From an uncultured Acidimicrobiales bacterium (GTDB taxonomy: Bacteria; Actinomycetota; Acidimicrobiia; Acidimicrobiales; VFJN01), in contig CAWJGJ010000002.1 in NCBI GenBank assembly GCA_963842395.1, forward strand, positions 6,481 to 70,480: a DNA stretch of 64,000 nt, given 5' to 3'. The position numbers and the translations under genes are program-made. The notes beneath the pieces are model-generated. The model was not told the DNA's origin and made no database searches. It worked only from the letters and a program-made list of their open reading frames with translations. Shown here piece after piece: positions 25,201 through 29,106 of the stretch. The stretch's first letter is position 1. Each line of letters opens with the position of its first letter.

Positions 25201-26132
25201 AGCCCCCGCCCCACGATCCCATCACCCTGGACGACGTCCGGGCGCTGGCGCCCCACCTGGCCGCCATGATCACCGCCCCGGCGTTCACGGCGGCGACCGC
25301 GTTCCAGACGCTCCTGACCACCATCGACACGACGTTGTGGTCGGTCGACCCCCTCGGGGACCGGGCCGACCAGAACCTGTCGGTGCTGGTGGGGCGGCCC
25401 CTGGCGCTGCTGCGGGTCGGGGCCCGGCTCAGCGTCGACGGGCAGCCGCTGGCGGCCCAGTCGGACTGGCCGAACGTGTGGCCACCGCCTGCCCCGGACT
25501 TCCTCACCCGCAAGTTCGAGGTCCGCCTCGGCGACCTGGCCGGCCGCCAGGACGGCCTCGTCGGCTTCTTCACCGGCGACGACTACGGCACGTTCAACAG
25601 CGTGGCCGCCCCCGACCCGGAGGTCACCCAGGGCTACGTCCGCCAGATCGGCCCGATCGGCCGGACCGACAACGGCAACTGGCTGACGCTGCGCTACGGC
25701 GACGCCGCCCCGACGTACCTGTCGCTGCTGGTCGACCCCCGGGCGGCCGTGCACTTCGTGACCGGCATCCTGCCCACCAAGGCCCTGACCCTGCCCGACA
25801 CGTTCGTGCGGGGGGCGCTGTCGCAGCTCGAGCTGACGTTCCGGATCGGGTCGCTGCTCACCCACTCCGAGCAGTCGCCGGCCACCGGCGATGCCCCACC
25901 GGCGTTCCCCGAGTCGATGTGGTTGCCCCACCCCACCGAGCAGGCCGGGGCCTGGTCGTGGTGGGAGCCCGACCGGGCCACCGGCTCGGGCTGGGCGTCC
26001 TACGGCCTGCTCCGGGCCACCGCCGACGCCCGCCTGAAGGACTACGCCAGCACCCTGCGCGACGGGTTCCTGCAGTTCGACACCGACCTGGCCCCGCCCC
26101 CAGGCGGCGGGGCCGACGAGGAGGCTTCGTGA
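22233..26132 (+). CDS. uncharacterised giant protein E (1299 aa) with a roughly 90 aa polyproline N-terminus
   Basis: ATG 22233 overlaps the D stop (GTGTGATG); GTG 22230 is an alternative start. The N-terminus has PEPPRP-type repeats and the remainder is a large globular region with no recognised domain. Confidence 0.75.
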   Translation: MSTDRPDPRPPSSPPTRSPAPTPPSRPEPPRPGPRPPAPQPPKPEPPRPRPEPPRPEPPRPGPMPPPGPKPPDPPPIGDPPPALVVPVDVQAMVVNHVPRAFRQWRFNYEALGSYDSPEPEAGGGQATTTARSPGIYLHWDLPDGLRHGTGGQDGDVTYPAAPNRWLVVRYSGLPAASRGVTGWVVESDCPNADSPALYLVDDTILQSWTASGDPRRVQGAQDVRRVAQANNGALVAQIGLPFPLTASGGWSERAAGTSSFLTAVAPGNILFSRYETHCANVFTFYDAMTGVAEGDLVTYLVVGWYAHAADDVLTTTTPTALGWAVPAGFAPTASVYQGLALDVPWLPSAGTTPPSPLDGLTGNVHVGVGNTTVDAFTALVAGRLDRPAAVDLLQAFHYGLLPELEAINGPDLLATAVHQAAFGSQPGALSWEIVDTTGDGATADLSPTVAAWLADLNEAQATLDTAQTSLDAHRWALYALWWKWQKGLYQSEIVPLDGFDPDAYEAAVRTTLPGLLSADHAAVSAQLPKVPQPVVQPGDTRQQSFERGIADLAAARGLGAGMALRAVTGSRSWRSADPVVVLSGINPGPLPDPSATLPCRRTGDLVAELHVGTTPVGAAQLGAARPALPAAAAVALPAFVSAFVLEAFLLDPASAGAIARATGLQPAAVTAAVTGHPAASYPGEVLPAKGLATWALQPWQPLAMEWQVGWVSIPDQTSGVDNWAFDGTDYSYTGPFGPFASDSAAPVQAVGGISPLTPEAQFTFRARLQKFVDDFVTGNPNAPADAEALAALETAIDQAGSWKFMSQALVGLGDIVAARDTRAHTGPDSTIAAAVAGRAAGVPYIPNGPEPRFDPLRQGQLAVQFLLVYDTFGQVLQIVGGTGSADPQNFVPTVDPALRPDKPVITRNPGRLVELRPRLQQPSRLDVAFVDARDDTVAVVAGGPANPVAAWLLPNHLDDGILLYAPDGRALGEVRLLADAAGTRTAQWQPPPHDPITLDDVRALAPHLAAMITAPAFTAATAFQTLLTTIDTTLWSVDPLGDRADQNLSVLVGRPLALLRVGARLSVDGQPLAAQSDWPNVWPPPAPDFLTRKFEVRLGDLAGRQDGLVGFFTGDDYGTFNSVAAPDPEVTQGYVRQIGPIGRTDNGNWLTLRYGDAAPTYLSLLVDPRAAVHFVTGILPTKALTLPDTFVRGALSQLELTFRIGSLLTHSEQSPATGDAPPAFPESMWLPHPTEQAGAWSWWEPDRATGSGWASYGLLRATADARLKDYASTLRDGFLQFDTDLAPPPGGGADEEAS

Positions 26133-27916: not shown

Positions 27917-29106
27917 GCGACATCGACGTCCCGCCGTTCTACCTGGACAGCCTGATCGCCCACGTCCCGGGCTCGGTGGCCCCGGTGACCGAGTTTCCCA
28001 ACGGCGCCCAGATCGAGCTGGTCTGGGACAGCAACGGCACCTCCTACACCGTGTACGCCGGCGGGGAGGCCGACCCCGTCTACTCCGGCACCGCCCCGAC
28101 CTGCGTCGTGCCCGGCCGCAGCCGGAACACCACCTTCGTGGTGGTGGCCTCGGTCGCCGGCGGCCCCGACAGCGGCACGCCCAACCCCGGGTTCCAGACC
28201 GTCCAGCTGTCGGCCAGCCTCACCGTCACCATCCGCGACCCCGACCAGACGCCCAAGTCGGTCACGGCCGGGACGCTCGACGTCACAGGCACCACCACCC
28301 TCAAGAGCGACGCCACCGTGGGGCCCACCGTCGTGGGTGGGACCCTGGACGTGACCGGCACGTCGACCCTGGAGGCCGGGGCCACGGCCACCGGCCTCAC
28401 CGTCACGGGGACCAGCAACCTCCAGGGCCAGACCAACCTGAAGGGCACGACGGTGAGCGGGCCCCTCACGGTCACCGGCAACGTGGAGGCCGGCGGGGCC
28501 AACGTCGTCGGGAGCCTCACCGTCAACACGTCGGTCACGATGTTCGCCCCCCGGGCGATCTCCACCGGCCAGTGGTACTCGGCCACCACCGACGGGCTCC
28601 TGGTCGGGACCGTGTGGTGGCCGTCCGGCGGCGCCGGCCTGAGGTGCTGCGCCATCATCAACGGCTACGGGCAGGGTGTCGGCTGGGTGTACGCCACGGG
28701 CGGCAACACCGTGGTGCACGCCGACACCTGGAGCACGACGATGTGGAACAACGCCAACACCTACACGGTGCCGGTGATGCGGGGTACGTCGTTCCAGGCC
28801 AACGCCACGCAGATCGGCGACAAGGCGGCCGACGCCCCCACCTCGTTCTGGTGGTACCCGATGGGCCGCAACGCCACGCTGACCGAGCTGACCGACGACG
28901 AGGCCGTGGCCCTCGGCGCCCCGGCCGGGCCGCCGCCCCTGCTGCCGGCGACGCCGCCGGCCTACGACCCCGGCAACGGGATCGTCGAGCTGGTCGAGGT
29001 GCTGCGCGACGTCCTCGGGGGCAACCTGTCCGAGCGCGACGAGCGCCGCTTCAGCGACGCCCTGTGGTCGATGGTCCAGACCGGCCCCCGCCCACCCGAG
29101 CACTGA
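27913..29106 (+). CDS. uncharacterised fibre-like protein G (397 aa), paralog of the C-terminal two-thirds of F
   Basis: ATG 27913 overlaps the F stop (ATGA). Shares LVWDSNGTSYTVYAGG, TTFVVVAS, L.VTG repeats, GVGWVYATGGN and FWWYPM with F. Confidence 0.8.
   Translation: MSDIDVPPFYLDSLIAHVPGSVAPVTEFPNGAQIELVWDSNGTSYTVYAGGEADPVYSGTAPTCVVPGRSRNTTFVVVASVAGGPDSGTPNPGFQTVQLSASLTVTIRDPDQTPKSVTAGTLDVTGTTTLKSDATVGPTVVGGTLDVTGTSTLEAGATATGLTVTGTSNLQGQTNLKGTTVSGPLTVTGNVEAGGANVVGSLTVNTSVTMFAPRAISTGQWYSATTDGLLVGTVWWPSGGAGLRCCAIINGYGQGVGWVYATGGNTVVHADTWSTTMWNNANTYTVPVMRGTSFQANATQIGDKAADAPTSFWWYPMGRNATLTELTDDEAVALGAPAGPPPLLPATPPAYDPGNGIVELVEVLRDVLGGNLSERDERRFSDALWSMVQTGPRPPEH

Follow-up and report, generated by a model that had tools for sequence, protein, structure and literature searches.

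Paralogous fibre-like proteins at the end of a DUF6603 operon as candidate exchangeable target-binding appendages

The DUF6603 cassette is a recurrent giant-protein operon without a described function, and our search of the searchable literature found no paper that mentions it. We analysed a window of 64,000 nucleotides from an uncultured Acidimicrobiales bacterium in which such an operon ends in two genes, F and G, whose products are the most interpretable parts of the cassette. What do these two proteins contribute to it?

Gene calls for F and G were made by GC3 frame analysis together with inspection of start codons; all coordinates given here refer to the plus strand. F (26129-27916; GC3 of 0.97 in frame) encodes a long fibre-like protein of 595 aa, the F-type, and G (27913-29106; GC3 of 0.98) encodes a short paralog of 397 aa without the N-terminal domain, the G-type. 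Directly 5' of F lies gene E (22233-26132), which encodes a cassette protein of ~1,299 aa with a polyproline N-terminus. The GTG start of F overlaps the E stop codon as GTGA, with GGAGG 5 nt upstream, and the ATG start of G overlaps the F stop codon as ATGA. F and G are translationally coupled genes at the end of the giant-protein operon. E, F and G are coupled by these codon overlaps, and F lies directly downstream of E on the strand that also carries gene C, the arrangement of an accessory module of the DUF6603 cassette; C itself matches DUF6603 (PF20248) with an E-value of 8e-142. A search for sequencing runs containing the sequence found no RNA runs, and the matching runs were soil and plant metagenome DNA only.

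Family scans offered little guidance to function. When all seven operon proteins were compared with Pfam, NCBIfam, PHROGs and PADLOC, DUF6603 in C was the sole match. Neither F nor G matched any Pfam family, even at E<=5, including S74, lectin, C1q, TNF and bactofilin, and single-sequence searches of the PDB with the two proteins returned no match. Judged by these comparisons, the F/G family appears to be without annotation in Pfam, NCBIfam, PHROGs, PADLOC or the sequences of the PDB.

F and G are paralogs, as the first-pass annotation had recognised from blocks of shared sequence. BLASTP aligned F residues 194-565 with G residues 7-392 (~396 aa) at 36% identity and 51% positives (E 7e-49). 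All of the quoted block pairs were found in the translations (QLYLDNLVT/PFYLDSLIA, IRLTWGSNGSSF/IELVWDSNGTSY, TTFTVVATL/TTFVVVASV, GVGTVYATGGN/GVGWVYATGGN, PVPKGSTFSA/PVMRGTSFQA and FNWYPL/FWWYPM), and the translations likewise contained the C-terminal helix motif and the three stalk units quoted for G. The extra N-terminal domain and acidic leader that had been assigned to F are seen both in the BLASTP alignment and in the AF2 model. In our tree the G-types formed one clade (SH-aLRT 92), sister to a clade with paired F-types, and G followed an F-type gene in every locus examined. The genome also holds a third F/G paralog, an orphan placed among housekeeping genes. A second cassette beside this third paralog was ruled out; the genome has one DUF6603 gene.

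Structures were modelled as AF2 monomers, for F (mean pLDDT 85) and for the G fragment 108-397 (mean pLDDT 87, pTM 0.74). For most parts these models predict with confidence that F and G share an Ig/FN3-like domain, a beta-solenoid stalk, a jelly-roll head, a Pro-rich linker and a C-terminal helical hairpin. F opens with an acidic, Pro-rich leader (residues 1-34, 26129-26230) that is predicted to be disordered (pLDDT 49-57) and is not conserved, its homologs starting near an LLxY motif. The N-terminal beta-sandwich of ~155 aa that follows (residues 35-192, 26231-26704; pLDDT ~97) is absent from G and present in 104 of the 165 family members. The shared part starts with the Ig/FN3-like domain, which spans F residues 193-292 (26705-27004; pLDDT ~97) and G residues 1-107 (27913-28233), the latter aligning with F 194-300 and conserved among G orthologs. 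This domain closes at a family-wide NPDLTP-type motif (ADPTLTP in F) and is the best conserved of all, with a mean identity of 36% across 138 sequences. Its earlier description as an Ig/FN3-like beta-sandwich agrees with the Foldseek matches, which were sandwiches of the FN3, pilin and adhesin kinds. The search with the complete F model was dominated by generic tandem matches of this type (Ig, FN3, pilin, adhesin) and was uninformative on the head; therefore, G 108-397 was modelled on its own.

The Ig-like domain is followed by a stalk rich in T, G, V and L in F (residues 293-395, 27005-27313; pLDDT 58-77) and by a repeat stalk in G (residues 108-212, 28234-28548; pLDDT 72-81). The G stalk was modelled as a beta-solenoid of ~12 short strands, spaced ~6 residues apart (fragment-model residues 15-87), and its self-similarity peaked at periods of 23, 17 and 6 residues. 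The idea of a beta-helical repeat shaft put forward in the first-pass annotation stands as far as the solenoid of the AF2 model goes, but a long shaft does not, the stalk having only ~100 residues. If the protein is monomeric, the stalk would make ~4-5 solenoid turns, a short structure and not a long fibre. Indeed, the AF2 monomer run folds the G stalk as a self-contained solenoid of ~4 turns, which is compatible with a monomer.

A profile built from 138 family sequences gave sub-threshold matches only when compared with the PDB, all of them in the stalk, to a tail-fibre protein, a bactofilin and T4 gp12. Sub-threshold bactofilin matches in the stalk came from three relatives as well as from the family profile (PDB bactofilin A, E 0.32); the relatives reached at most 20.9 bits (E 4e-4) against a PF04519 gathering score of 27.9 bits. 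The bactofilin beta-helix resembles the F/G stalk, whose quasi-repeats of the three lengths given above are modelled as a three-sided solenoid. However, bactofilins occur in a different domain context, and there is no sign of polymer formation for F or G.

At the end of the stalk the models place a jelly-roll-like beta-sandwich head, comprising F residues 396-505 (27314-27643; pLDDT 78-97, mostly >90) and G residues 213-330 (28549-28902; pLDDT 90-98). Its conserved motifs are TDG, ATGGN, LPV and FxWxP, with TDG and GGN invariant. The head had been likened to C1q/TNF jelly-rolls, and a jelly-roll-like sandwich is indeed what was modelled, but the specific likeness to TNF and C1q is weak and below significance (Foldseek E 0.006-0.06, TM <=0.35). 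Foldseek matches with G 108-397, though weak, point in one direction: to tailspikes, phage minor tail or fibre proteins and TNF-like lectins. They include CD40L, TNF, TRAIL, FasL and BC2L-C-Nt (E 0.02-0.06, TM by target 0.25-0.35), and a protein of a giant virus (Pithovirus) named 'C1q domain protein' (E 6e-3). The trimeric C1q/TNF-like heads of BclA, BC2L-C and CD40L/TNF share with F and G a compact beta-sandwich of ~110-120 aa that ends a stalk; unlike F and G, they carry no linker and helical hairpin after the head. The more particular comparison with BclA fails, as neither translation contains a collagen G-X-Y repeat stalk and the stalk is modelled as beta-strands. PDB entry 8okh (Bd1399) was also among the Foldseek matches; it is absent from the paper on mosaic adhesive trimer fibres (PMC10769870) and was not counted as one of these fibres.

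The top Foldseek matches include the capsule-depolymerase tailspikes K2-2 TSP and CBA120 TSP4 and pectate-lyase-like phage proteins, and the invariant TDG and GGN motifs of the head are polar. Both observations would suit glycan-degrading enzymes of the tailspike-depolymerase type in place of passive binders. We consider such an activity very improbable, however, given that the matches are weak (TM 0.1-0.2), that no glycosidase or lyase family was matched, and that a solenoid of ~4 turns is far shorter than the beta-helices of catalytic tailspikes.

How variable is the head? The expectation that it might be under diversifying selection was not borne out: when per-domain identities were compared among close orthologs, the head gave a value of 0.58 against 0.60-0.63 for the other domains, and it is not hypervariable. 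Variation arises by replacement of the whole tip, with no sign of diversifying selection through point substitutions in the head. A profile search for the family recovered 1,024 cluster representatives at E<=1e-3 and 201 at E<=1e-30, and most of these ~1,000 relatives have the F-type layout. Across the family the N-domain, the Ig domain and the start of the stalk are retained, and the tip is exchanged for S74 intramolecular chaperone, ConA-like or H-type lectin domains. Of the 165 proteins listed, 74 relatives were scanned, and 10 of these had Peptidase_S74 (PF13884); one relative carried Laminin_G_3 together with S74, and one carried H_lectin. In two of the three S74 relatives inspected, the catalytic, autoproteolytic SDxxxK motif stood at the start of the Pfam match (SDLRLK at 577 in P0119, SDERIK at 547 in P0087). 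Independent support for the original fibre-like reading comes from those relatives whose C-terminus is an S74 fibre chaperone, SDxxxK motif included, or a lectin domain. Loci hold one to four fibre genes, with up to four divergent paralogs. Tandem arrays in which 2-4 fibre genes follow E, and F-type and G-type clades that have been retained separately, are both in line with the notion of one scaffold bearing two different tips.

These exchanges also bear on a structural role, in which F and G would be monomeric, beads-on-a-string beta-sandwich subunits that decorate, cap or stabilise C-D-E and have no external target. The compact and confident AF2 monomers, with a self-contained solenoid in the G fragment, would fit such subunits, and the ATGGN and TDG motifs of the head are strongly conserved, not variable. 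Caps would not be expected, though, to swap their distal domains for lectins or S74-capped fibres, nor to occur as arrays of up to four divergent paralogs, and they should not be missing altogether from some cassettes, as F and G are. We therefore hold a purely structural role to be rather improbable.

The exchange of tips is also informative about the C-terminal helical hairpin. In F it follows the Pro-rich linker (residues 526-565, 27704-27823; helices 526-544 and 547-562, pLDDT 94-96) and precedes an RD-repeat tail; in G it covers residues 354-389 (28972-29079; fragment-model helices 247-260 and 267-282, pLDDT 90-97). The hairpin occupies the place of the S74 chaperone in relatives, and therefore probably aids oligomerisation or folding, not anchoring.

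We examined other loci for evidence of where F might attach. An F-type gene directly followed the ~1,250-aa E gene in 15 of 17 informative loci (15 distinct besides the window). The order DUF6603 gene, ~800-aa gene, ~1,250-aa gene, F-type gene recurred in Actinomycetota, in a Longimicrobiales MAG and in metagenome contigs. In addition, E and F occur as natural fusions, in P0029 (1,855 aa, identical in two assemblies) and in P0124, with the N-domain placed directly after the E-like part. Because in these fusions the N-domain of F continues from the C-terminus of E, docking of F on the C-E core through its C-terminal helix, as once suggested, appears less likely than docking through the N-terminus. 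The E-F fusions point to the attachment site of the recognition module. Linkage is not obligatory in the other direction: some DUF6603 cassettes have no F-type gene, as in G317, where C-D-E come without a fibre gene.

The same linkage weighs on a phage ancestry of the locus. F and G might be remnant prophage tail-fibre genes that lie beside the cassette by chance, and the weak Foldseek matches to phage tailspikes and minor tail proteins would be in keeping with this, as would one IMG/VR contig with a 72-aa stalk-like match in a fibre-like ORF, the sole match found there. Yet F and G had no match in PHROGs, and tblastn found none in 50,697 phage genomes or 72,556 plasmids; on these negative results, a phage or plasmid origin of F and G was rejected. 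No phage genes flank the operon, and its surroundings are free of genes for capsid, tube, sheath or baseplate. With E linkage conserved across phyla and E-F fusions in addition, the prophage reading is close to refuted.

Do the proteins act outside or inside the cell? Signal peptides and clear TM anchors are absent from all seven operon products, neither F nor G has a hydrophobic N-terminus, and no lysis or secretion genes flank the operon. These features would suit a reading in which the DUF6603 cassette builds a cytoplasmic complex for conflict or defence, with F and G as its recognition or sensor subunits; they would bind a component of an invading phage or plasmid within the cell, and not the surface of a target cell. 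Patchy distribution fits mobile conflict systems as well (in a phylum sample of 401 genomes, DUF6603 was found in 8 and the F/G family in one, this genome only), and swappable recognition modules are typical also of defence sensors. On the other hand, PADLOC returned no match and no NTPase, nuclease or other effector domain was recognisable in the operon by family scans. The swapped tips are an S74 fibre chaperone, an H-type lectin and a ConA-like lectin, domains that belong mostly to extracellular or virion proteins. Tailocins and eCIS likewise have no signal peptides, so the missing signals are indecisive on export. We judge an intracellular sensor unlikely, although less so than the structural and enzymatic roles discussed above.

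The reading that we favour, at somewhat better than even chances, is that F and G serve the DUF6603 C-D-E cassette as fibre-like or adhesin-like appendages that bind a target and can be exchanged. In this model the operon would be translated as one unit, and the C-terminal end of E would provide the docking site for the N-terminal beta-sandwich of F (residues 35-192). The Ig-like domain and beta-helical stalk would extend the jelly-roll head, possibly in a trimer, and the head would bind its ligand, most likely a surface glycan or a protein of another cell. Such a role presumes that F and G are exported and exposed at a surface or extracellularly. G would be an old derivative that has lost the N-domain. 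In all loci examined it comes after an F-type gene, so that it probably enters the complex via F or assembles together with F; either way it would contribute a second specificity.

The architecture of F and G, together with the S74 and lectin tips of their relatives, provides the first concrete clue that the cassette builds a target-recognising structure. Should this interpretation prove right, targets might be predicted from the modular tips, and the particle could later be redirected to other targets by means of them. A bolder proposal, which we offer tentatively and regard as doubtful on balance, is that the cassette is a non-phage machine of a kind not described before, which has no sheath, tube or NTPase. 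Exchangeable receptor-binding proteins of fibre-like form, attached to its largest subunit, E, by docking or by fusion, would direct this machine at other cells. If true, it would represent a new class of cell-targeting particle, horizontally spread over several phyla, whose specificity is reprogrammed through tip swapping and fibre-gene arrays.

Several known systems invite comparison. The fibres of tailocins and eCIS (Afp13/Pvc13-type) can be likened to F and G in their position at the distal end of an operon, in serving a large particle without signal peptides, and in their exchangeable tips that set specificity. Unlike those systems, the cassette lacks genes recognisable as sheath, tube, baseplate or ATPase, and DUF6603 is the only described family represented among C, D and E. 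Phage receptor-binding tail fibres and tailspikes with S74 at the C-terminus, such as the K1F endosialidase and the T5 L-shaped fibre pb1, share with the F/G family an N-terminal adaptor, a shaft and a distal binding domain, as well as recombination at module boundaries, and some F/G relatives carry bona fide S74 domains. F and G differ from them in ending in a helical hairpin and in having no PHROG or phage-genome match.

A comparable design outside phages is that of the mosaic adhesive trimer (MAT) fibres of Bdellovibrio bacteriovorus, which combine a constant N-domain and a beta-helix with tips of the S74, TNF-like or lectin type (Caulton et al. 2024, PMC10769870). MAT proteins, with ~1,000 aa and signal peptides, are encoded by stand-alone genes, whereas F and G are proteins of 400-600 aa with an Ig-like domain, encoded directly after the E gene and sometimes fused to E. 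Of the two MAT hallmarks of a signal peptide and a conserved N-domain, F and G lack the first, and F has an N-terminal beta-sandwich in its AF2 model. Like the F/G family, MAT fibres are cell-encoded, with several paralogs per genome, and the two share a layout in which a constant N-terminal beta-rich domain of ~130-155 aa is followed by a beta-helical stalk and an exchangeable C-terminal tip.

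Third-codon-position GC analysis of the window (G+C ~73%) resolved a single unbroken run of plus-strand genes at 12374-29106, with ordinary metabolism genes on both flanks. The genes are A (12374-13792, 472 aa), B (14022-15428, 468 aa), C (15428-19825, 1,465 aa), D (19822-22233, 803 aa), E (22233-26132, ~1,299 aa), F (26129-27916, 595 aa) and G (27913-29106, 397 aa). The TGA stop of E overlaps the GTG start of F (GTGA), with a GGAGG element upstream of F, and the TGA stop of F overlaps the ATG start of G (ATGA). C is the only annotated protein of the operon; it matches DUF6603 (E 8e-142), a domain for which we found no mention in the searchable literature. 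A and B, tandem paralogs at the operon head (12374-15428; 62% identity), have neither a family match nor an export signal. At its N-terminus E has a polyproline tract of ~90 residues; near residue 633 the protein carries the operon's most hydrophobic 19-residue stretch (mean Kyte-Doolittle 2.16), possibly a membrane-active segment or a buried core. Beyond the operon, a 9-kb sugar-utilisation block is bracketed by a 55-nt direct repeat (29190-29244 and 38254-38308, 98% identical). The repeat corresponds to the 3' half of the tRNA-Gly(GCC) gene located at 38257-38332 on the minus strand. The first copy begins 84 nt past the G stop, and the layout resembles an att-type insertion adjoining the cassette.

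The first-pass annotation had described F and G as paralogous fibre-like proteins, and this was upheld: residues 194-565 of F and 7-392 of G share 36% identity (E 7e-49), and all of the sequence blocks it quoted are present in the translations. AlphaFold2 modelling of F from a 138-sequence alignment (mean pLDDT 85) delineated a disordered acidic leader (residues 1-34, pLDDT ~50), a beta-sandwich N-domain (35-192, ~97), an Ig/FN3-like domain (193-292, ~97), a stalk (293-395, 58-77), a beta-sandwich head (396-505, 78-97, mostly >90), a Pro-rich linker (506-525, 75-85) and a helical hairpin (526-562, 94-96). Residues 108-397 of G were modelled on their own (mean pLDDT 87, pTM 0.74). Here the stalk comprises twelve strands of 3-4 residues at ~6-residue spacing (pLDDT 72-81), forming a beta-solenoid of about four turns, in agreement with the beta-helical shaft proposed from the repeats; self-similarity in this stalk peaks at periods of 23, 17 and 6. 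About nine strands make up the head (pLDDT 90-98), and two C-terminal helices follow it.

Neither protein matched Pfam, NCBIfam, PHROGs or PADLOC, even at E<=5, or any PDB sequence. With whole F as query, Foldseek returned nothing but generic sandwiches of the tandem Ig, FN3, pilin and adhesin types (SdrD, RbmA, SpaD, IL-23 p40; E 2e-5 to 1e-3, TM <0.3), bearing out the Ig-like domain and showing nothing beyond it. The stalk-head-tail model of G gave weak matches that point in one direction. In the PDB these were the K2-2 tailspike (6e-4), CBA120 TSP4, the Bdellovibrio protein Bd1399, CD40L, TNF, TRAIL and FasL (0.02-0.06), the TNF-like BC2L-C lectin and picornavirus jelly rolls; in BFVD (6e-5 to 1e-2) they were Gordonia-phage minor tail proteins, tail fibres, pectate-lyase tailspikes, phage and giant-virus collagen-repeat proteins and a Pithovirus 'C1q domain protein'. 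A jelly-roll head on a beta-helical stalk is sustained as a fold class, but the proposed kinship of the head with C1q/TNF is not established by such weak matches (TM <=0.35). A family profile gave only sub-threshold matches to PDB sequences, all within the stalk (a putative tail-fibre protein, 0.033; bactofilin A, 0.32; T4 gp12, 2.5).

Word-seeded searches found 17 relatives for G and 6 for F; an exhaustive profile search recovered 1,024 cluster representatives at E<=1e-3, of which 201 also passed E<=1e-30. The F-type layout (~520-560 aa, N-domain included) is shared by most of them. Gene order is near-constant, with a DUF6603 protein followed by proteins of ~800 and ~1,250 aa and then an F-type protein, in Streptosporangiaceae and other Actinomycetota MAGs, a Longimicrobiales MAG and metagenome contigs. 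Across all fetched loci, tblastn placed an E-like gene immediately 5' of an F-type gene in 15 distinct loci. The sole exception group, from fermentation metagenomes (L030, L033), has the F-type gene just upstream of C-D-E, a rearranged cassette variant. A soil metagenome contig (L021:8225-15298) carries four tandem F-types directly after an E-like gene, each with 41-45% identity to the F-type protein of the Longimicrobiales MAG, and one actinobacterial MAG has an F-G-F'-G' array. The short G-type, which lacks the N-domain, lies directly 3' of an F-type gene in 6/6 distinct actinobacterial loci. A maximum-likelihood tree groups the G-types in a single clade (SH-aLRT 92) whose sister holds their partner F-types, so the N-domain was lost once, with both types kept since.

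Within a 401-genome sample of the phylum, DUF6603 occurs in 8 genomes and the F/G family in this one only. One of those 8, the complete genome G317, encodes C-D-E proteins of 1,532, 951 and 1,226 aa with a 585-aa gene upstream (L041, G317:C1:6984001-7004000), followed by a 99-aa ORF and no F-type or G-type gene; the fibres are therefore an accessory module. Outside the window, the genome that contains the window holds an orphan third F-type paralog of 525 aa, ~31% identical to F (G000:C1:2187310-2188887, minus strand; L035:7310-8887), among housekeeping genes (IlvD, GNAT, Hsp70-like, MatE) and far from the genome's one DUF6603 cassette. Its place in the tree, within a distant clade to which a Longimicrobiales protein also belongs, makes it look separately acquired. 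Neither 50,697 phage genomes nor 72,556 plasmids gave a tblastn match to F. IMG/VR yielded only a 72-residue stalk-like match, in a 637-aa fibre-like ORF of a viral contig (L046:8705-10618). That ORF has 17-18-residue repeats (GVSTFNNTVVNGDVRVTG) like the family stalk, and the ORF that follows has abundant His/Thr repeats.

The N-domain, the Ig domain and the initial ~50 stalk residues are retained in many relatives, which diverge from there on; in other members the head or an entire G-like unit is duplicated. We scanned 74 of the 165 listed family proteins for alternative tips. Peptidase_S74, which serves trimeric phage fibres and endosialidases as an intramolecular chaperone, was found in 10 relatives, one relative combined Laminin_G_3 (ConA-like lectin fold) with S74, single relatives had an H-type lectin domain or DUF3892, and three had sub-threshold bactofilin matches in the stalk. 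In P0119 and P0087 the S74 match begins precisely with the SDxxxK catalytic motif, the S74 consensus (PMC10769870). P0119 and P0085, like F, follow C-D-E-like genes. The head of close F orthologs is no more variable than other domains (identity: N-domain 0.63, Ig 0.60, stalk 0.46, head 0.58, hairpin 0.41), contrary to what diversifying selection on the tip would predict. Module exchange rather than hypervariable loops is the source of diversity. The C-terminal hairpin, previously proposed as an anchor, is more likely an oligomerisation or folding element, since it occupies the position of S74 in relatives. From the S74-bearing relatives and the TNF-like fold class we infer a trimeric state; the closed-solenoid stalk of the monomer model is equally compatible with a monomer.

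Two representatives, P0029 and P0124, are natural E-F fusions. P0029 (1,855 aa) joins an E-like part (5-1235, 41% identical to E of the window) to an F-like part (1301-1777), and is identical in two assemblies (L043:8001-13568, L044:6902-12469), where its gene is again preceded by a DUF6603 gene and one for a 764-aa protein. Downstream of the fusion gene lie two unannotated genes of ~420 aa, one with a faint Peptidase_M91 match. By joining the E C-terminus to the F N-domain, the fusions offer the strongest available evidence as to where F would attach. Together, gene order, translational coupling and fusions suggest that the F N-domain docks on E, with the Ig domain and stalk presenting the head. 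G, with no N-domain and a constant position after an F-type gene, probably joins via F or co-assembles with it.

The evidence is best accounted for by reading F and G as exchangeable target-binding appendages of a C-D-E assembly. The main rival to this reading is that they act as intracellular sensors in a conflict system: no signal peptide or hydrophobic N-terminus was found in any of the seven operon proteins, nor a TM-like segment in F or G. Tailocins and eCIS likewise lack signal peptides, yet there are no lysis genes here, which keeps the sensor as the chief competitor to target-binding appendages.

We conclude that F and G represent a real, conserved, unannotated family of modular fibre-like proteins, of the receptor-binding fibre or adhesin kind, tied to an undescribed cassette; the chief value of the family is a testable function for that DUF6603 cassette. 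On the tests applied, they belong neither to the S74-ended phage fibres nor to the tailocin/eCIS or Bdellovibrio MAT fibres. Unlike S74-ended phage fibres, F and G themselves have no S74 domain and no PHROG or phage match; unlike Bdellovibrio MAT fibres they have no signal peptide; and against bactofilin they do not score above threshold. Their closest functional analogues are the S74-ended receptor-binding fibres of phages, the fibres of tailocins and eCIS, and the non-phage Bdellovibrio MAT fibres, in which a constant N-domain of ~130 aa and a beta-helix carry S74, TNF-like or C-type-lectin tips (PMC10769870).
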